Assembly (NCBI GenBank): GCA_938028625.1
Contig: CALIZB010000003.1
Location: 12,103 to 76,102 of the forward strand
Source: an uncultured Bacteroidia bacterium
GTDB taxonomy: Bacteria; Bacteroidota; Bacteroidia; JANWVE01
Direction: 5' to 3'
Length of the DNA: 64,000 nucleotides
A program made the translations under genes and the position numbers. The stretch's first letter is position 1, and each line of letters begins with the position of its first letter. A model generated the notes under the pieces. The model did no database searches. It was not told where the DNA came from and saw only the letters and a list, made by a program, of their open reading frames with translations. This document shows positions 46,240 to 59,479 of the stretch, piece after piece.

Positions 46240-49176
46240 GTGAAAGTATTTTTTATCGCCTTTTTACTTTACTTTACCTTATTTTGCACAGCGCAAACTT
46301 GGCAAAGTGCCTATGATAGCTGTAAAAAATATCAAGACTTACAACAATATAAAAAAGCCATTGAGTGGGGAGATAAAGCCTTAGAACTATATGAAAAACA
46401 AGTTTTAATGAAAGATACGAATTATAGTAATATTTTGAATAGACAAATTGAAAATTGTTATTATAGTGGTTTATACAAAAAAGGAGAGCTATATGCTAAA
46501 AAAGATAGTATTTGGTCAAAAAGCTATATTCAAGATTTAAGTAGATATTCTATTTCTTGCAATAATTTAGCATTGTTATACGAAGTTCAGGGTCATTACA
46601 CTGAAGCGGAGGCTCTCTTTAAAGAAACGAAAAGTATTTTAGAAAAAACACTAGGCAAAGAACATATTCAATATGCTACTACTTGCAATAATTTAGCAGT
46701 CTTATACAAAGAACAAGGTCGTTTCACTGAAGCCGAAGTTCTCTTTAAAGAAATCAAAAATACTCTACAAAAAGTACTCAGCAAAGAACATGTTGAGTAC
46801 GCTACCGCTTGCAATAATTTAGCTAATATGTACATATCTCAAGATCGTTATAATGAAGCCGAACCTTTGTATAAAGAAGCCAGAGCAATTCTAGAAAAAG
46901 TACTTAATAAAAAACATCCAGATTATGCTTCATCTTGCAATAATTTAGCCACATTGTATCACTCTCAAAGACGTTATAGTGAAGCCGAACCTTTGTATAA
47001 AGAAGCCAAGGCGATAAGAGAAAAAGTACTGGGCAAAGAACACCCCGATTATGCAGTTTCTTGCAATAATTTAGCCAATTTATACAAAGCTCAAGGTCGT
47101 TATAGTGAAGCCGAACTTTTGTATAAAGAAGCCAAAGCAATTTATGAAAAGATACTTGGCAAAAAACACCCTGATTATGCTAATTTATGCAATAATTTAG
47201 CTATTCTATACAAATCTCAAAGACTTTATAGTGAAGCTGAGATACTATACAAAGAGTCCAAAACGATTTATGAGAAAATACTTGGTACAGAACACCCAAA
47301 CTATGCAACTTGTTGTAACAATCTAGCAGAATTATACAAGGAACAAGGTCGTTATAGTAAAGCTGAGTCTCTTTTCAAGGAAGCAAAGGCTATTCGCGAA
47401 AAAATGCTTGGCAAAGAAAGCCCAAACTATGCGGCTTCTTGCAACAATTTAGCAGAATTATACAAAGAACAAGGTCGTTATGATGAAGCTGAAGCGCTAT
47501 GTAAAGAGTCTAAAACGATTTATGAAAAAATACTCGGTAGAGATCATCCTTCTTATGCTTTATCTTGCAGAAATTTAGCCCGTTTATACCATAAACAAGG
47601 TTTATACTATAGTGCAGAACCTTTATACATAGAGTCCATTCAAGTTAAGCAAAAAGAAATAGAAAAAAATTTCAAAGGGCTATCCGAAGCAGAAAAAGAA
47701 AAATATATAAAAGCAAACATAGAAGGTTTTTTTACTGATTTTCAATGTTTTGTGAGCAAACGTTATTTAGAAAATCCTTTTGTGGCAGGTTATGCCTATA
47801 ATCTTGCCATATTTACCAAAGGACTTATTCTAGAAAGTACTCAAAAAATTAAGAACCGTATTCTTAATAGCAAAGATGAAAATCTTAAAAATCTTTACCT
47901 TGAATGGAAACAAACCAAAGATAAATATGCTAAATTCCAAAATCTAACCATACAACAAAGATTACAGAAAAAAATCAATTTAGATAGTATAGAAAAACGT
48001 GCTAATGAATTAGAAAAAGAACTCGCTTCCAAAAGTGAAGATTTTGCGCATGTATTTATTTCAAAATCTGTTACTTGGCAAGATATACAATCTAAACTTG
48101 AACAAGACCAAGCCGCAATAGAAGTTATCAGAGTAGAATTAAACACAGATGATTATTTTTACATGATATTCTTTCTTAAAAAAGAAAGTAATTGCCCAAA
48201 AATGATAGTCCTGCAGAGTGATAGTTTAGAAAAAGAATATCTCATCAACTATAGAAGAAGTACTCGGCATAAACTATACGATCCTTACAGTTATAACGTC
48301 TTTTGGAAAAAAATTAAAGAAAAACTCAAAGATATAAAAACAGTGTATTTTTCTCCTGACGGGATATATCATCAAATTAACTTGCTTACCTTGCAAAACC
48401 CAGAAACGAAAAAATATGTATTTGATGAGATACAAATTATTAACGTAACCAATACCAAAGATATACTACAAAAACCTAAGAAACACTCTAAAAATAGTCA
48501 TCTAATAGGTAATCCTACGTTTAACTTAGGTATAGACACCAAAGGCAATGAAAAACCTGAAGAGTTCCATAGTATATCAAACTTATCCCAATTGCCAGGT
48601 GCAGAGAATGAAGTAAAACAAGTGGCTAACTATCTACCCAATTCTAAGCTTATTACAGGTAAAGAAGCTACCGAAGAATATGTAAAATACCTCAAAAATC
48701 CACGTATTTTGCATGTAGCCACACATGGGTACTTCAAAAAAGGACAATACCAAAGTAGTACTCAAGCTATGTTAAATGGGGGTTTGCTATTCGCAGGAGT
48801 AGTAGACTATGACCGTATGGAAATTCGTCCTTTTGATAAAGAAGACGGCAAACTTACGGCATTTGAAGTGATGAATATGGAATTAGACAGCACAGAGTTA
48901 GTAGTTTTATCTGCCTGCGAAACAGGTTTAGGAAAAGCAAGTAAAGAAGGAGTATATGGGTTACAACGAGCTTTTAAGGTAGCAGGTGCAGAGTGTATCA
49001 TTATGAGTTTATGGAAGGTAAATGATGAAGCTACGCAGTTACTGATGACTAAATTTTATGAAAATTGGCAGAAAAAAGGCATGAGTAAGCGTGTTGCTTT
49101 TGAAACTGCCCAAAAAGAAATTAGAAAACAATATAAAGAACCGTATTATTGGGGCGCTTTTGTGATGATTGAGTAA
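46240..49176 (+). CDS. Secreted TPR-repeat protein with a C-terminal CHAT (caspase-like) peptidase domain.
   Basis: The signal peptide is MKVFFIAFLLYFTLFCTAQ. It has about nine TPR_12-type repeats (CNNLAxLYKxQGRYSEAEPLYKEAKAIxEKxLGKEHPDYAxS). The CHAT catalytic dyad context is RILHVATHGYF (His) and LVVLSACETGLG (Cys). Confidence 0.8.
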   Translation: MKVFFIAFLLYFTLFCTAQTWQSAYDSCKKYQDLQQYKKAIEWGDKALELYEKQVLMKDTNYSNILNRQIENCYYSGLYKKGELYAKKDSIWSKSYIQDLSRYSISCNNLALLYEVQGHYTEAEALFKETKSILEKTLGKEHIQYATTCNNLAVLYKEQGRFTEAEVLFKEIKNTLQKVLSKEHVEYATACNNLANMYISQDRYNEAEPLYKEARAILEKVLNKKHPDYASSCNNLATLYHSQRRYSEAEPLYKEAKAIREKVLGKEHPDYAVSCNNLANLYKAQGRYSEAELLYKEAKAIYEKILGKKHPDYANLCNNLAILYKSQRLYSEAEILYKESKTIYEKILGTEHPNYATCCNNLAELYKEQGRYSKAESLFKEAKAIREKMLGKESPNYAASCNNLAELYKEQGRYDEAEALCKESKTIYEKILGRDHPSYALSCRNLARLYHKQGLYYSAEPLYIESIQVKQKEIEKNFKGLSEAEKEKYIKANIEGFFTDFQCFVSKRYLENPFVAGYAYNLAIFTKGLILESTQKIKNRILNSKDENLKNLYLEWKQTKDKYAKFQNLTIQQRLQKKINLDSIEKRANELEKELASKSEDFAHVFISKSVTWQDIQSKLEQDQAAIEVIRVELNTDDYFYMIFFLKKESNCPKMIVLQSDSLEKEYLINYRRSTRHKLYDPYSYNVFWKKIKEKLKDIKTVYFSPDGIYHQINLLTLQNPETKKYVFDEIQIINVTNTKDILQKPKKHSKNSHLIGNPTFNLGIDTKGNEKPEEFHSISNLSQLPGAENEVKQVANYLPNSKLITGKEATEEYVKYLKNPRILHVATHGYFKKGQYQSSTQAMLNGGLLFAGVVDYDRMEIRPFDKEDGKLTAFEVMNMELDSTELVVLSACETGLGKASKEGVYGLQRAFKVAGAECIIMSLWKVNDEATQLLMTKFYENWQKKGMSKRVAFETAQKEIRKQYKEPYYWGAFVMIE
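46555..47650 (+). repeat. Tandem, roughly 126-bp coding repeats (TPR units) inside the TPR-CHAT gene.
   Basis: The nucleotide-level periodicity is tgcaataatttagc...gaagccgaa(c/g)ctttgtataaagaagcc, repeated about 9 times. Confidence 0.8.
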
Positions 49177-50958: not shown

Positions 50959-52452
50959 ATGAAATATTTTAGCGTATTCATATTTTTAACTTTGTATCTG
51001 ACTTCACAAGCACAGCAACTGCATTCTATTGGTAATCCTGTGAATAGTATGCACACAGAATATGCCCCTGCCATCAGTCCTGATGATAAAACTATTATTT
51101 TTCAAAGTAGCAGACAGGGCGGTGTGTATAAACTGTATGAGTCTAAATATGACGAAAAAACAAAAAAATGGTCAGAACCGAAGTATCTTTCTAATATCAA
51201 TAATTTTTTTGAGAGTAAAACTTATATATTCGGACCTTGTCTGAGTTATGATGGCAATTATCTCTATTTCTGCACAGATGAAAAAGGTATGGGTGCTATG
51301 GATATATGGGTTTCCCGCAGAAAAGGTAAAGAATGGACAACCCCTTCTAATCTCGGCTATCCCATCAATACAGATGGCTACGATGGTTTTCCTGCTGTAT
51401 CTGCTGACGGCAAGGCACTATATTTTATGCGAGATAATAAAAACAATACTAATCGTACTAATTCAGGGTTAGAATGCTATGATTTATATGTATCCTACAA
51501 ACAACCTAATGGCGCCTGGGGCGAACCCGAAAAACTTCCTGCACCTGTCAATATGGGCTGTGAACGCATTCCCCGCATTATGCCTGATGGAAAAACATTG
51601 TATTTCTCTTCATATAGACCAGGGGGAAAAGGTGATTTAGATATTTACAAGTCTGTTCTCGGTCCTGATGGCAAGTGGAGTAACCCGCAACCGCTTAATT
51701 TTATGAACACAAATACGGCAGATAATACAGGTTCTATTAACGGTGCATGCGATAGAATGTATATTGCGTCTAAACAAATGAATAACTGGGACATTTTTTA
51801 TGTAGATATACCTCCCGAGTATCGTCCTGCTACAACAAATATCGTAGTAGAAGGTACAATTACTGATACCACTACCCAAAAACCCATTGCCGCAAAAATT
51901 CAGGTAGCAGATTTAGAAACCAAAGAAATACTTATAGAACAAGAAAATAACAGTTATGATGGTACTTATATGGTAGTTGTTCCCACAGGTAAAGACTATG
52001 AAATTACCGTTTCTGCCAAAGGATACTTTTTTAATTCTATGGAAATCAATGCCAAAGAAATAACTACTTACAAAGAGATAGATAAAGATATTAAATTAGA
52101 AAAACTAAAAAAAGATAAATCCATTCCTTTGAAAAATATCTACTTTGATTTTGACTCCTACAAACTAAAACCTGAGTCTTATATTGAATTGGATAAAGTA
52201 GTCCGTCTTATGCAAGAAAACCCCGAAATTAGCATTGAACTCAGCGCACACACAGATGACAGGGGCAAAGATGACTATAACATGACCCTCTCTAATAACC
52301 GTGCAAAATCTGCCGCAGAATATATTTTTAGCAAAGGGATAGACAAAACCCGCATTGTATCCAAGGGGTACGGAGAAACAAAACCTCTTGTACCTAACTC
52401 TACTGATGAAAACCGAGCAATAAACCGAAGAGTTGAATTCAAAATACTGTAA
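50959..52452 (+). CDS. OmpA-family outer-membrane protein with N-terminal PD40/TolB-like repeats and a carboxypeptidase-regulatory-like domain.
   Basis: It has a signal peptide and PD40-like repeats (SPDDKTIIFQSSRQGG, SADGKALYFMRD, MPDGKTLYFSSYRPGG). The OmpA C-terminus is NRAKSAAEY...NRRVEFKIL. Confidence 0.8.
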   Translation: MKYFSVFIFLTLYLTSQAQQLHSIGNPVNSMHTEYAPAISPDDKTIIFQSSRQGGVYKLYESKYDEKTKKWSEPKYLSNINNFFESKTYIFGPCLSYDGNYLYFCTDEKGMGAMDIWVSRRKGKEWTTPSNLGYPINTDGYDGFPAVSADGKALYFMRDNKNNTNRTNSGLECYDLYVSYKQPNGAWGEPEKLPAPVNMGCERIPRIMPDGKTLYFSSYRPGGKGDLDIYKSVLGPDGKWSNPQPLNFMNTNTADNTGSINGACDRMYIASKQMNNWDIFYVDIPPEYRPATTNIVVEGTITDTTTQKPIAAKIQVADLETKEILIEQENNSYDGTYMVVVPTGKDYEITVSAKGYFFNSMEINAKEITTYKEIDKDIKLEKLKKDKSIPLKNIYFDFDSYKLKPESYIELDKVVRLMQENPEISIELSAHTDDRGKDDYNMTLSNNRAKSAAEYIFSKGIDKTRIVSKGYGETKPLVPNSTDENRAINRRVEFKIL

Positions 52453-54278: not shown

Positions 54279-54400
54279 GAAACAAAAATAGGTTCTACAT
54301 AATTTTACATGCAATTTTTTCCGAATAAGAATAATATTCTGCGTGCAAAGTTGTGTTTATCGGTATGCGTTTAAACATTTATATTTTGAGATATATGCCT

Positions 54401-55048
54401 TTACAAACAGCGACATTTAGATTTCAATACACTTACTTTTTGCCGAAGCTGTTTTTTATCTGGAAATATCCCATAAAACTTAGAAGCCTTTAAATACTCT
54501 TCCTTTATCAATTTTAGACCTTGTTTTTTAGGGTAAGTCTTATATGCTATGTATTCTTTGATAATAGTTTCATAGTCAGATAAAAGTAACCCCTGAATAT
54601 CTAACAAAAAAATCAAAAACAGTGAAGTCGCAAAGTTTATATGCTGATAATTCTCTTTCAAAGCATGGATACATTTTTTATCATCTGTACAAAAAACAAA
54701 GTACTTACCTTCCTTCTCCATTCTTTTACTGATTTGTGCAATAGCATCTGCTTCTCCAATATCTACATTTTTAATAGTTTTTAGCTGACAAAATATAAGT
54801 TCATCTCGGGTATTGCATAAACTGATAGAATATCTTTTTTGTTCTATCCACTCGATATATTGTTGAGTACGTTCCTTAAAGTGTTCTTCATGGAGATTAA
54901 ATGTATTCAATTCTGTAAAGATACATTCAGGAATAACTATCTGACCAGATATCAGTTGCAGTTTTTGTATCAGGTCTATAGAAGATATTCTTGCCGCAAT
55001 ATTAAAAACAGTATTATCCAATACAAGCACTATATCTTGTTTTTGCAT
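54401..55048 (-). CDS. PIN-domain protein (predicted RNase) with a roughly 80-aa C-terminal extension.
   Basis: The four PIN acidic positions are D11 in VLVLDNTVF, E in IPECIFTEL, D in DIGEADAIAQ and D in FVFCTDDKK. The start codon overlaps the stop of the upstream TIR-like gene (55048). Confidence 0.6.
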   Translation of the reverse strand: MQKQDIVLVLDNTVFNIAARISSIDLIQKLQLISGQIVIPECIFTELNTFNLHEEHFKERTQQYIEWIEQKRYSISLCNTRDELIFCQLKTIKNVDIGEADAIAQISKRMEKEGKYFVFCTDDKKCIHALKENYQHINFATSLFLIFLLDIQGLLLSDYETIIKEYIAYKTYPKKQGLKLIKEEYLKASKFYGIFPDKKQLRQKVSVLKSKCRCL

Positions 55049-55632
55049 TATTTTTTATCTGACAGCAAAGATGCGAGCACTACCAAACCTACACCTATAC
55101 CCAAAATAGCCAGAATTCCATTTAACATATCTTTTTCCTCTTCTTTACGTTTGAGTTCCTGTTTCTGTTTGTTTTTACGTGCCTCTTCAATAGCTTTATC
55201 CCATTTTTCAAATTCTTTGCTGAATACCTGCTGTATAATTCTTTCAAGAATTTTTTCTGTATTTTCTTGGTGTGGATTACAGTAAATTTCTGTAAAATGT
55301 TCTGTCATTGAACCTGTAAGGTTTTTCTGAGTACTGTAAACCACTATAATTCTGCTTTTATCCAGCAATTTTTGATAAGCAAACTCTATCTCTTCTTTGA
55401 CCACATTGCTTAGTTTATCAGTGAGGGCGAACATAATGACGTAATCAGCCTGTAAAATTCTGTTTTTTGTGTTTTGTGAAATATGTGCAATAGAGTCATA
55501 ACGGTCAGGCAGATAGGCAGTAAAGCCATTTGTTACTGCTATACTGTGAAGGCGGAGGGCAAGGGTCTGTTCATCAGGATTTTTAGGGTTATAGGTAATA
55601 AAAAGCGTTTTGTTCATGGTGCAAAAAGACAC
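55048..55632 (-). CDS. TIR-like (DUF1863/MTH538-type; alternatively nucleoside 2-deoxyribosyltransferase-like) Rossmannoid domain protein with a C-terminal transmembrane anchor.
   Basis: The TIR-like N-terminal strand is LFITYNPKNPDEQTLALRLHSIAVTNGFTAYLPD. The conserved S..V..EIE.A motif (SNVVKEEIEFAYQ) supplies a candidate catalytic Glu. A coiled, charged linker follows. The C-terminal TM helix is ILAILGIGVGLVVLASLL. It starts 5 nt after the PorU-like stop. Confidence 0.5.
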   Translation of the reverse strand: MSFCTMNKTLFITYNPKNPDEQTLALRLHSIAVTNGFTAYLPDRYDSIAHISQNTKNRILQADYVIMFALTDKLSNVVKEEIEFAYQKLLDKSRIIVVYSTQKNLTGSMTEHFTEIYCNPHQENTEKILERIIQQVFSKEFEKWDKAIEEARKNKQKQELKRKEEEKDMLNGILAILGIGVGLVVLASLLSDKK

Positions 55633-55636
55633 TATT

Positions 55637-58600
55637 CTAACGTATAATTACTAATTTTTGATATTGAGAAACAGGCTTTTTGTCTTTACTTGTACGAATT
55701 TGCAGTTTATAGATATAAGTACCTCTGCCAATTCTATCCCCAAAATCATCTAAACCGTCCCATTGAATACTACGTACCTGTGTACCTTCTGAAATTACAT
55801 CTTGCTGAATGGTTTTTATGAGGCGTCCTGAAATAGTGTAAATTTGTACAGTAACTTCTAAAAGCTCACCTGGTCTGTTGTGTTCAAACCAAAATTCTGT
55901 ATGTGTAGAGAAAGGATTAGGATAATTTAACACATTAGCCAAAGCTAATTCAGCGCTTTTAGCAACAATAAATTCGGTAACGGCTTCATTAGAATTATTG
56001 AATACGTCCCATGCTTTTACTCTCATTGAATATCTGCCTTCATTGAGTTTTTCCATTTGATAATTTACTTTTCCACTCTGATAACTATTGAGTTCATAAG
56101 TAAAGTACTCGTTCAATATACGATTATCTTTGGAATTTTCATTTAATCTTCCTGTAATGTCGTGTCCTACACTTGTGCCTACGGTATTGATGCCATTTTC
56201 ATCATAAATTTTGGCAATAAGAATAGGTGTATCATCTACTATGCCTCCACGAATAAAATTTTCATCATTCATAAAAAGTTCAATTTTAGGTCCTTGATTA
56301 TCCACAGGCGGATTTGGATTTACTCCACCTACCACAATATCTATATTATATCCCCCACCATCTTGTTTAACTTGTCCATTTTCAAAATAAAGGGATATTT
56401 TTCCTTTGCCAAAAGTGTAATCAATATCTTTGGGAACAACAAATTCAAAGGCAAATTTTCCTGCATTTACAGAGGCTTTGCCCTGAAAAATAATATTTTT
56501 GTAAGACTTGTACGTACGGGGTTCTACTATGGTAGTCTGTGTGGCAGGTTTGTCAAAAACAGTAGAATACAGTGTACCGTTATAGTTCGTATTCAGACTA
56601 CCGTCGTTGTTGCGTACCTCTCCTTCAATACGGATTTTAGTAAGAGCTCTGAGGGTATCTAAGGTAACTGCGGTATTTAAACCTGTAACTTTGAGTACAG
56701 AGGCTTTTTTTTCAGGGTAGTTTAACTTCATAGCAGGGTCACCGAGTAAAGCAAAAGCCGTAGAATTTAGCCCTGACAAGTTCATACTATTCATATAGAT
56801 TTCACCTATGGTATAATGGCTACCGTTGCTCATCGTATCAAAAACAGATTTAGCGAAATTTTTATTTAATATTTCGTTAGCACTGGCGTACACCAGTCGT
56901 GTAGTTGTAAATAAAGCAATAGCCCCACCATCAGATTTTTTGAATACCTCTATGCCAATAGAAGTTTTTTCAGGGTCATCAAAACGCCCAAATTCGCAAG
57001 TAGCCGTAACCATAAGTGGCATTTTTACAGGATTTGTAAAAGCACTGAGGTCTGGCATATTGAACAGGCGTTCATGTCCTATACCTTCTTCATTACCGTG
57101 TCCTGCATAATTTAATATAAGTGTACCTTGCGTAAAAGCTTCTATTACTTTTTGTTTTACGTCAGGTCTGCGCTTACCTACCGCAGTAGATACCACAGGA
57201 TAGGAATCGCTATACAGTTTATTTACATTGTATTGTGGATAGTTAGTTTCTATAATATCTGTAACAGCTTCCATCTGATTAAAATGGGCAATTTCAGGTG
57301 GACTTACTAAGCCTTCATAATACATATCGTCTGCAAGTAAAGTAACGGTATTTCTCCATTTTCCTAAACCTTCTGGATTAGTCTTATAGCGGATTACTTT
57401 ATCTACCATACCATTGGCTTCAGAAAGGTTGCGTGCAGGAAATCTGCCAACACCTATATCCATTTCATCAACGATACTGCTTTCTAATTTACCATCAACA
57501 TCATCTAATGCTCCTATAAACTGGTCAAAACCAATGGAATATACAGGACTGAGCGAATTTGAGCTTTGGTAAGTAGGAATCATACAACCATTTATCTTGG
57601 GACTATAGCCTGCTGCACCCATAATGAGTACATTTTTAGGTATTATCACTCCCCTATCGTAGTGCATTTTAAGAAAATCACGTATAGCTACTACATCGGC
57701 TTTTCCTGATGCAAATTCTGTATAAATCTGACGCACAGGTACTACGGCAACGGTCATATTATCATACTCTCTGTGAAACTGGGCTAATCGCTCTGCGGCA
57801 GGTATCAGGCTTTCATGAGTAATAATAAAAAACTCTGCGCTGTTCATACCATGTAAATTTTGATTAGCTACTTTACCTAATAACATAGGACTTTGTGTGC
57901 CATTACTATTAAATCCTACAATCCATTTGCGGTTAGAAGCATCTACCTTGAATTGTGCAGTAGTACCTGAAAGCGTGTAAGGAATAGATTGTATATTAAA
58001 AATATCGGTTACGTCCCAAAAAGTAGCATCAGTAGCATTTTCTACGGTATATTGATGAATGTTACCTGATGCAATATTACTTAACTGTGTCATCAAGACA
58101 TAATTTTCGTTGAGATTAGCATTTTTAATATAATTGATGCGGATAAAGTTCGTCCATACATCACAAGCGCCGTTTTTTGCAAAATTAACAGTATATTGTA
58201 ATTCAGGTGTAGTAACGGTATTACTGTTTATAGTAAGTGTAGCATTGAATATACTAGCATAGTCCGCTACATAGCTCGGATTGTACGGGGTAAGGTTGCG
58301 TATTACGTTGTTGCTTCCTGCAGAGAATGTCATTGTTCCCCCACCTCCGCGATATGCCATTTCAATATAAGCAGTAAGGTTAGTATTAGGTGCAAGGTTA
58401 GTAGTATTAAGCATGTAAGAGTAAGAATTTTGTCCTACAAAGTTTTCACCAAACATGGTTTTACCTGATTTTATCAGGCTGTACTGGTCTTTTTCAAAAA
58501 AGGTATAGGCATTATAGGTGCTGAATGTATGCGTAGCAGGGGCAGTAATAGCTGTGGTTGTAGGAATACGCAATCCATTTCCAGGAATATCTGCCGTAAT

Positions 58601-59479
58601 AAAGTAAAAGGTAGTATCAGAATAAATGTTAAAACGGTGAGTAATCTGTGTAGCACTGGCTACTAACTCATGCGGACTTTGTCCGTAAAACAAAATATAA
58701 TCTTCGGGATTAAATACATTATCACTTTCACCTACCACAATAATAGGATTTTCTTTCAAGTCATCGGGGGGAGTAGTATTTGCAAGTGTGGGAAGCATGC
58801 TGCCACCATTTCCGAATATCCGTATTTGCTTAGGATTAAGAGAACTTACAGGAAAACCCAAACTTTGTAAATCGTTGTAAGTAAGTTTATAAACACCGTT
58901 TTTAGTAACACCAATCTTTGCCCAATATCCTGATGAAAGTACACTATTGGTAGCATAAGAACGTATTCCCGTAGTGCGCATGGCAGGATTAGAATTATTT
59001 TTAAGAGTATAACTTACTTCAAGATGAGTTAATTTGTAGTATTGTCCATTTTCATATTTGAGTGGGTAGATGCGTAATGTAGCTACTTTTTCTTTGCGAA
59101 TAAAGCCATATTGCTGAATTTGCACAATAGCCGTTTGATTGAGAAAAACGTCATTAGGTTTGAGAGCGGTATATTCATTAGCGTTAGAGAGAACCTGATA
59201 TTCAGAATGTATGACTTGTATCTGTTCAATTTCTTGATTATTAGGAATTTTTATTTGATGTATTAAATAAGGCGCCCATTGTTCCATAGCATCAGGAAAT
59301 TCATGGGCATTGGAAGCGTTTGCAAGGTAAGGTATTTTTTTATTCTCCTGCATGTTCAGATAGGTATACCCTAACCACTTTGGATTAAGCACAAAAGTTT
59401 GTTGTGCAAACAAATCTATCTTATGATAACTAATACCTATGAGCAGAAAAGCTAAATAAAAATATCTTTTGTATAGCAT
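55637..59479 (-). CDS. Peptidase C25 (gingipain-like) family protein with a T9SS CTD. Candidate T9SS sortase PorU.
   Basis: It is 1280 aa with a signal peptide. The C25 catalytic His context is NYAGHGNEEGIGHE and the Cys context is MVTATCEFGRFDDPE. The C-terminal T9SS CTD-like region is GTYIYKLQIRT...KLVIIR. Size and architecture match flavobacterial PorU, but no porV is adjacent. Confidence 0.55.
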   Translation of the reverse strand: MLYKRYFYLAFLLIGISYHKIDLFAQQTFVLNPKWLGYTYLNMQENKKIPYLANASNAHEFPDAMEQWAPYLIHQIKIPNNQEIEQIQVIHSEYQVLSNANEYTALKPNDVFLNQTAIVQIQQYGFIRKEKVATLRIYPLKYENGQYYKLTHLEVSYTLKNNSNPAMRTTGIRSYATNSVLSSGYWAKIGVTKNGVYKLTYNDLQSLGFPVSSLNPKQIRIFGNGGSMLPTLANTTPPDDLKENPIIVVGESDNVFNPEDYILFYGQSPHELVASATQITHRFNIYSDTTFYFITADIPGNGLRIPTTTAITAPATHTFSTYNAYTFFEKDQYSLIKSGKTMFGENFVGQNSYSYMLNTTNLAPNTNLTAYIEMAYRGGGGTMTFSAGSNNVIRNLTPYNPSYVADYASIFNATLTINSNTVTTPELQYTVNFAKNGACDVWTNFIRINYIKNANLNENYVLMTQLSNIASGNIHQYTVENATDATFWDVTDIFNIQSIPYTLSGTTAQFKVDASNRKWIVGFNSNGTQSPMLLGKVANQNLHGMNSAEFFIITHESLIPAAERLAQFHREYDNMTVAVVPVRQIYTEFASGKADVVAIRDFLKMHYDRGVIIPKNVLIMGAAGYSPKINGCMIPTYQSSNSLSPVYSIGFDQFIGALDDVDGKLESSIVDEMDIGVGRFPARNLSEANGMVDKVIRYKTNPEGLGKWRNTVTLLADDMYYEGLVSPPEIAHFNQMEAVTDIIETNYPQYNVNKLYSDSYPVVSTAVGKRRPDVKQKVIEAFTQGTLILNYAGHGNEEGIGHERLFNMPDLSAFTNPVKMPLMVTATCEFGRFDDPEKTSIGIEVFKKSDGGAIALFTTTRLVYASANEILNKNFAKSVFDTMSNGSHYTIGEIYMNSMNLSGLNSTAFALLGDPAMKLNYPEKKASVLKVTGLNTAVTLDTLRALTKIRIEGEVRNNDGSLNTNYNGTLYSTVFDKPATQTTIVEPRTYKSYKNIIFQGKASVNAGKFAFEFVVPKDIDYTFGKGKISLYFENGQVKQDGGGYNIDIVVGGVNPNPPVDNQGPKIELFMNDENFIRGGIVDDTPILIAKIYDENGINTVGTSVGHDITGRLNENSKDNRILNEYFTYELNSYQSGKVNYQMEKLNEGRYSMRVKAWDVFNNSNEAVTEFIVAKSAELALANVLNYPNPFSTHTEFWFEHNRPGELLEVTVQIYTISGRLIKTIQQDVISEGTQVRSIQWDGLDDFGDRIGRGTYIYKLQIRTSKDKKPVSQYQKLVIIR

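Follow-up and report, generated by a model that had tools for sequence, protein, structure and literature searches.

A predicted tail-anchored TIR-fold protein paired with a VapC-type PIN protein in a coupled two-gene unit of Bacteroidota

A stretch of 64,000 nucleotides (nt) from an uncultured Bacteroidia bacterium (NCBI GenBank assembly GCA_938028625.1, contig CALIZB010000003.1, positions 12,103 to 76,102 of the forward strand), called the window here, carries two overlapping genes on its minus strand directly behind the gene of PorU, the sortase of the type IX secretion system (T9SS), and the question raised by this locus is whether the two genes belong to the secretion system or form a unit of their own, and what such a unit might do. 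Gene A (55048..55632, minus strand; 194 amino acids when counted from a GTG at 55632) encodes a TIR-domain protein predicted to be tail-anchored, and gene B (54401..55048, minus strand; 215 amino acids) encodes a predicted VapC-like PIN nuclease. The stop codon of A and the ATG of B have one base in common in the sequence TAATG (55046..55050, minus strand, read from 55050 to 55046; context AAA TAA TG), which couples the translation of B to that of A. An earlier reading of the DNA made without database searches (the sequence-only reading) had placed both open reading frames (ORFs) at these coordinates with this overlap, as was confirmed here, and had taken them for a toxin-like or antiphage module.

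One genome per GTDB species was scanned (185,579 species representatives), and loci of gene A were found in 56 of them, showing that the family is rare. Nearly all of these 56 loci belong to Bacteroidota, namely to Saprospiraceae, Cytophagales, Chitinophagaceae, and Bacteroidales, and outside this phylum there were one metagenome-assembled genome (MAG) of Chlorobiota and one MAG labelled Asaia. Hidden Markov model searches of the ORFs placed B directly downstream of A and on the same strand in 54 of the 56 species loci, the two exceptions being L058, where the contig ends, and L015, where A stands alone, and a pairing far beyond chance is well supported. Six look-ups of A homologues with 41% to 86% identity each showed a B homologue of about 200 to 216 amino acids immediately downstream, and three look-ups from the side of B gave five loci, all with an overlapping upstream gene of the A family. 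The junctions at other loci are overlaps of 1, 4, or 8 nt or a gap of 2 nt, and with the TAATG of the window they show that the translational coupling proposed by the sequence-only reading is real. No third conserved gene was found among 289 clustered flanking proteins, the largest cluster having 4 members. The two proteins co-evolve (r = 0.74 over 1176 locus pairs), with A more conserved than B in 99.5% of the locus pairs (mean identity 48% vs 34%). A and B are translationally coupled and inherited as a unit.

The product of gene A had been described as a TIR-like core with a conserved Glu and a C-terminal transmembrane (TM) anchor, and both the homologues and the predicted structure bore this description out. 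In profile searches, the expected matches were obtained in part: the window proteins were not significant against the TIR and PIN families of Pfam, while homologues of A did reach TIR families. The window copy of A alone had no TIR match in Pfam at E<=10, and NCBIfam and PADLOC likewise gave no significant family for it. Among the 51 A homologues collected by a word-indexed search, 30 matched the Pfam family TIR_2 (best E 2.5e-5) and 12 matched ThsB_TIR/DUF1863 (best E 1.4e-6). The AlphaFold2 (AF2) model of A calculated from the alignment of these 51 sequences (pLDDT 86, pTM 0.83) has the flavodoxin-like five-stranded beta-alpha fold of TIR domains, the TIR-like domain being placed at residues of about 9 to 117 by the beta-alpha-beta arrangement of the model, and the top Foldseek matches of the model were TIR-STING, TIR-APAZ of SPARTA, a 'cryptic TIR', and SARM1. 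Through the homologues and the predicted structures, the TIR-fold assignment for A is well supported.

An hhalign comparison of the A family with the TIR domain of SARM1 covered 127 columns (probability 35%, E 4e-4), with F11-I-T-Y14 of the A strand motif F11-I-T-Y14-N15 falling on FISY and E81 falling on E642, the catalytic Glu of SARM1. In an alignment of 158 family members, the predicted catalytic residue E81 was kept in 96% of the sequences, P42 and R44 at the position of the BB-loop (L41-P42-D43-R44) were 98% to 99% conserved, and N15, R27, R58, and I59 were conserved in more than 90%. A thus keeps the site residues of TIR domains that cleave nicotinamide adenine dinucleotide (NAD), namely the FxxY strand and the Glu in helix C, and the activity itself is predicted.

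The TIR-like domain is followed by a charged, Lys-rich helical stalk (residues 125 to 153, a long helix in the AF2 model) and by a TM helix (residues of about 163 to 188, inside model helix 157 to 191), and only four residues are C-terminal to this helix. A C-terminal hydrophobic helix with a conserved G-x-G-x-G motif was found in at least 139 of 157 A sequences, and no signal peptide was found in A. Given the Lys-rich stalk and the four-residue tail after the helix, A would be tail-anchored in the inner membrane with its TIR domain facing the cytoplasm. An exhaustive HMMER search with the A profile against 1.84 billion representative proteins returned about 210 clusters, and the best 150 of these 210 were all 249 amino acids or shorter and matched the profile end to end where complete, with no fusions, so that the A family is small and uniform. 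Generic TIRs were not reached by the A profile among these 1.84 billion proteins, and profile searches of the A and B families against PDB sequences gave nothing significant.

For gene B, the four acidic residues of a PIN active site noticed in the sequence-only reading proved to be invariant or nearly so and to lie at canonical positions in the predicted model. The PIN core covers residues of about 1 to 150, where D11, E46, D96 (with G98-E99), and D122-D123 were invariant or nearly so in 10 to 24 sequences, and in the model, which has the PIN fold, D11 follows strand beta1, E46 is in helix 41-49, D96/E99 are at the start of helix 97-113, and D122/D123 come after the beta strand 116-120. The core is followed by a C-terminal extension (residues of about 159 to 206; three helices, about 50 residues) that is conserved within the family and specific to it. 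The predicted model and the conserved residues well support B as a VapC-type PIN protein with an intact acidic metal-binding site, for which a ribonuclease (RNase) role is predicted.

The family relationship of B was more difficult to settle by profiles. The Pfam family PIN_4 matched window B with E 0.021 and 15.6 bits, below the cutoff of 21.9, and the current copy of Pfam-A gave no match at E<=0.01 for any of 24 B family members, while precomputed annotation lists PF11848 (DUF3368) for 24 of 25 B homologues, a model which may have been changed or retired between Pfam releases. The PADLOC profiles of PDC-S70 matched window B with E 7e-6 over the N-terminal half of the profile only (profile positions 5 to 86 of 161 and 12 to 86 of 125), and they matched 22 of 24 B family members (best E 3e-11), these matches being scored by E and without PADLOC's own coverage and score thresholds. 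The C-terminal extension of B is outside the coverage of the PDC-S70 profiles. B thus appears to be a distant or peripheral relative of the COG2405/DUF3368/PDC-S70 toxin family, and its PIN half would not be new by itself. COG2405/DUF3368 proteins are VapC-like putative toxins of toxin-antitoxin (TA) systems whose characteristic partner is UPF0175 (Matelska et al., PMC5499597). PDC-S70 is a PIN-only defence candidate (PMC12988326) that came from a two-gene cassette embedded in defence loci, and one representative of PDC-S70 lowered the plating of T4, T5, and T7 (10.1101/2024.09.26.614923).

With regard to the position behind PorU, the upstream gene (55637..59479, minus strand, 1280 amino acids; co-oriented with A and outside the module), which had been noted as a C25 peptidase gene, is a genuine PorU (NCBIfam NF033707, 1204 bits vs a cutoff of 420). 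Database copies of A (P0001 and P0224) are 189 amino acids long with the first residues MNKT, and a start Met equivalent to it is present in all A homologues. Because the database copies and the homologues begin at that Met, the true start of A is likely the ATG at 55617, giving 189 amino acids. The distance from the PorU stop to this ATG is 19 nt, and the gap of 5 bp reported earlier holds only when the gene is counted from the GTG (4 to 5 nt). In 38 of 58 loci, the Bacteroidota -7 promoter motif TAnnTTTG lies 20 to 57 nt ahead of the A start, with a chance expectation roughly estimated as 3% per 40-nt window, so that the pair is as a rule an operon of its own. The motif is absent upstream of A in the window (55618-55760) and in L001, where A is 10 to 19 nt behind porU, and these two pairs are probably read through from porU, since no -7 motif lies between porU and A in the window. 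Around the window pair, neither repeats in the flanks nor terminators nor sigma-70 promoters were found in excess of chance, and no tRNA was found near the pair; the GC content of the pair region is 0.30 to 0.32, slightly below about 0.35.

The comparison of neighbourhoods showed that porU adjoins the pair only in the closest relatives of the window (L001 to L003), and at more than 50 other loci the adjacent genes are unrelated. The position after PorU, which had seemed odd, is thus confined to these loci and without functional meaning, and a universal conservation of the pair beside porU, by which the sequence-only reading would have had to give up the module, was not what was found; with more than 50 unrelated neighbourhoods, that comparison goes in favour of an accessory, toxin- or defence-like module. 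The accessory context itself was borne out at some loci and not at others, as the window and most loci have housekeeping surroundings and type I restriction-modification genes were touched in only about 4 of the 56 loci. These arrangements are hsdM-A-B-hsdS (L037 4553-8567 and L039 4553-8817), hsdM directly upstream of the pair (L058 4304-6330), and A-B-hsdS-AAA_21-HNH (L009 8001-12283). An integrase was found near the pair in L007 and an AbiEii gene in L151. A defence-island setting was rejected as a general rule, the neighbours being mostly housekeeping genes, and kept as occasional embedding in restriction-modification loci.

Three metagenome contigs carry a 99.8% to 100% identical cassette of 1.75 to 1.9 kb with unrelated flanks (L151 357-2266, L152 194-~2050, and L153 1-1716), which consists of A-B with about 390 bp upstream and 190 to 355 bp downstream. 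The right end of this cassette has a palindromic repeat (AACCCAGATTATGCAT..ATGCATAATCTGGGTT) and another hairpin related to it, with a deletion of about 100 bp at that end in L152, and the left edge has a 33-codon ORF; these right-end repeats and the left-edge ORF may show where the mobile unit ends on either side. Decayed copies were seen in L015, L024, L035, L048, L052, L053, L056, and L063, all of which could be MAG assembly errors. With the same caution, 5 loci had an intact A and a B that was absent, truncated, or frameshifted, 1 to 2 loci had a truncated or frameshifted A next to a largely intact B, and both were broken in L063; B was thus lost more often than A, as one would expect were B the harmful partner.

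A search for an empty site in metagenomes through the flanking SBP gene gave a single close relative, L069, in which the flanking genes are 84% to 93% identical and no A, B, or PorU is present within 7.7 kb downstream of the SBP gene. Because porU is missing along with A-B, this is a synteny break and not a clean insertion. A polytopic membrane ORF of about 420 to 447 amino acids follows the SBP_bac_5 gene in relatives (L001 9218-10561 and L069 4187-5443), and the window does not have it, as only a 122-bp spacer (54279-54400) separates the SBP stop from the B stop; this membrane ORF being present or absent between relatives, the junction of the convergent operons is a variable spot. A practical point of annotation is also settled, in that what follows PorU in the window genome is a cassette that was inserted there, and its genes are not part of the T9SS.

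Two other genes of the window were recorded on the plus strand. A 978-amino-acid protein (46240-49176) has many TPR repeats, of which NCBIfam recognises the TPR part only, and its C-terminal region has caspase/CHAT-like His and Cys motifs (HVATHGYF ... SACETG); TPR-CHAT proteins are often components of conflict systems. A PD40/OmpA-domain protein (50959-52452) matched PorE with 237 bits, below the cutoff of 600, and also matched CHU_0125 OmpA-like proteins; it lies near PorU on the opposite strand, with the SBP gene and the A-B pair between them.

Because B comes from a toxin/defence PIN lineage and a TIR-fold protein occupies the antitoxin slot, we favour, by a little over an even judgement, that A-B is a self-contained, mobile two-gene conflict module, either TA-like or of the abortive-infection/antiviral type, in which the PIN RNase would be the effector and the TIR protein would control it or act along with it. 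The near-constant pairing without a third gene, the unrelated flanks together with the identical cassette, the promoter motif ahead of A, and the decay pattern all speak for this view. In the specific mechanism that we infer, A and B would form a membrane complex in which the PIN RNase, as the growth-arresting effector, is sequestered and held inactive by the TIR protein, the latter filling the upstream 'antitoxin' slot that in this PIN family is normally taken by the UPF0175 DNA-binding antitoxin. The nuclease would be freed by a trigger, such as an infecting phage, a disturbance of the membrane, or a halt in new synthesis, and the same trigger may also allow the tethered TIR domains to form oligomers that consume NAD+. 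Growth would then stop because RNA is cleaved, whether or not NAD+ is depleted as well.

Several observations weigh against the conflict module as drawn here. The physical interaction of A and B is purely what we infer. No DNA-binding domain is present in A, and its evolution is slower than that of B, which is the opposite of classical antitoxins, and A has Val where many NADase TIRs have a conserved Trp preceding the Glu. The first- and second-shell neighbours of the pair are mostly housekeeping genes such as tRNA synthetases, ATP synthase, dehydrogenases, and T9SS cargo. Neither the phage and plasmid collections searched by tblastn with A nor a scan of IMG/VR gave a match, and the pair is therefore not demonstrably phage- or plasmid-borne. 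In addition, the conservation pattern of A suggests that it is itself an enzyme and not just an inhibitor, because high conservation and an invariant Glu point to chemistry rather than to mere binding of B, and an enzyme-like A keeps the Thoeris-like and SPARTA-like alternatives alive.

In a further explanation, A might be an enzymatic regulator of B from the antitoxin slot of a COG2405-type module, acting either through an NAD+-dependent modification of B or through a nucleotide made at the membrane and read by the C-terminal domain of B. We consider this possible, though rather unlikely.

In the Thoeris-like alternative, the membrane TIR protein would sense infection and turn NAD+ into a nucleotide signal, and the C-terminal domain of B would bind the signal and switch on RNA cleavage. 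The TIR fold and the conserved catalytic-type Glu of A, the weak ThsB matches of A homologues, and a conservation of A as expected of an enzyme are all in line with such signalling, as is the extra conserved C-terminal domain of B, which PDC-S70-type PINs do not have. However, this extension is small, with three helices and about 50 residues, and no ligand-sensor domain (SLOG, Macro, SAVED, CARF, or STING) can be recognised in B. Coupling through the start and stop codons would fit two subunits of a stoichiometric complex better than an enzyme with its receiver. Thoeris ThsB sensors are usually the fast-evolving partner, contrary to the slower-evolving A. On this evidence the Thoeris-like alternative appears unlikely.

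The SPARTA-like alternative reverses the roles, with the TIR protein as the effector and the PIN protein as a sensor or regulator that would see invader nucleic acid or cut its own mRNA as in type V TA systems, and that would release or cluster the TIR domains to cause NAD+ depletion, or membrane damage via the glycine-zipper TM helix. It is in line with the conservation seen in the pair, which is highest in the active-site residues of the TIR domain and in the G-x-G-x-G motif of the TM helix, and TIR-APAZ and TIR-STING effectors are among the best Foldseek matches. However, the complete catalytic acidic quartet is kept in B, which is therefore not a mere binder, and the more frequent loss of B with A intact would be unexpected were A toxic. 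PINs of the B type are toxins elsewhere (PMC5499597). We regard this alternative as improbable.

A housekeeping or T9SS-accessory role tied to PorU, as a PorV substitute or a membrane-associated RNA-processing pair, agrees with the placement of the pair without its own promoter motif behind porU in the window and its closest relatives and with the many housekeeping neighbours elsewhere, but is highly improbable and, on synteny, essentially excluded, since porU adjacency is limited to L001 to L003, the family is rare (56 of 185,579 species; about 210 clusters) and sometimes frameshifted, A and B are predicted to be cytoplasmic or at the inner membrane with no signal peptide where PorV is in the outer membrane, and L069 has none of the three genes in the stretch behind its SBP gene.

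TIR domains have a central part in the immune systems of bacteria, plants, and animals, and to our knowledge every new TIR partner so far has revealed a new signalling or effector logic, as in Thoeris, SPARTA, CBASS, and Pycsar. In the present pair a membrane-anchored TIR protein would be joined with a VapC-type RNase, which normally has a simple DNA-binding antitoxin, and the pair may involve a new control of a TIR enzyme or of a VapC nuclease. If the pair is a defence or TA module, it shows partner swapping between TA toxins and TIR enzymes, provides a tractable test of whether membrane tethering controls TIR activation, and adds a compact Bacteroidota-specific system of about 1.2 kb; Bacteroidota are under-represented in experimental defence studies. 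If A gates B enzymatically, it would be a new logic of TIR immunity, with a membrane-localised TIR enzyme gating an RNase, and A would be the first TIR-domain 'antitoxin'.

Among known systems, the closest to A-B on the side of B are UPF0175-COG2405 and PDC-S70. B is like them a VapC-like PIN protein with the same acidic site, with matches to PDC-S70 and to the precomputed PF11848, and is encoded by the second gene of an operon of two tightly coupled genes, and some A-B copies are within type I restriction-modification loci, the kind of embedding by which PDC-S70 was found. Unlike UPF0175-COG2405, the upstream partner in A-B is a TIR-TM protein of 170 to 190 amino acids and not the UPF0175 DNA-binding antitoxin; A had no match to UPF0175 (PF03683), and the upstream gene was a TIR-TM protein in every locus. 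B is also 40 to 60 residues longer and has a family-specific C-terminal helical domain. A UPF0175-COG2405 identity was thus rejected because the partner differs.

On the side of A, the pair is like Thoeris in having a small stand-alone TIR/DUF1863-like protein with a catalytic-type Glu beside a putative effector, and in having a TM segment in the system. It differs from Thoeris in that a SIR2, SLOG, or Macro protein is absent and a PIN protein, in which no ligand-binding domain is known, is found as the partner. The TM helix belongs here to the TIR protein, which is also the slower-evolving member of the pair. PADLOC gave no ThsA match for the pair and ThsB matches in only 4 of 51 A members (E about 1e-4), and because no ThsA-type protein is present, a Thoeris identity was rejected. 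With SPARTA and TIR-STING/TIR-SAVED, the pair has in common that they are the best Foldseek matches of A and, as a concept, that a TIR NADase is under a nucleic-acid- or ligand-binding partner, but in place of APAZ, pAgo, STING, or SAVED there is no more than a stalk and a TM helix in A, and its partner is apparently an active nuclease. Identity with SPARTA, CBASS, or Pycsar was likewise rejected because their sensor domains are absent.

HEC-03, a defence pair of an ABC ATPase with a VapC-like PIN protein (Payne et al., 10.1101/2024.01.29.577857), is similar to A-B in that a PIN effector has an upstream partner not of the antitoxin type and is embedded in defence loci, and it differs in the partner, which is an ABC ATPase there and a putative tail-anchored TIR protein here. 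Full-text literature searches found no description of an operon of TIR with PIN/VapC, and the view of the sequence-only reading that the pairing is neither Thoeris nor another described TIR system was upheld. In general, the comparison suggested that A-B is made of known domain types in a known general use, that of a two-gene conflict cassette, in a pairing that is apparently undescribed.
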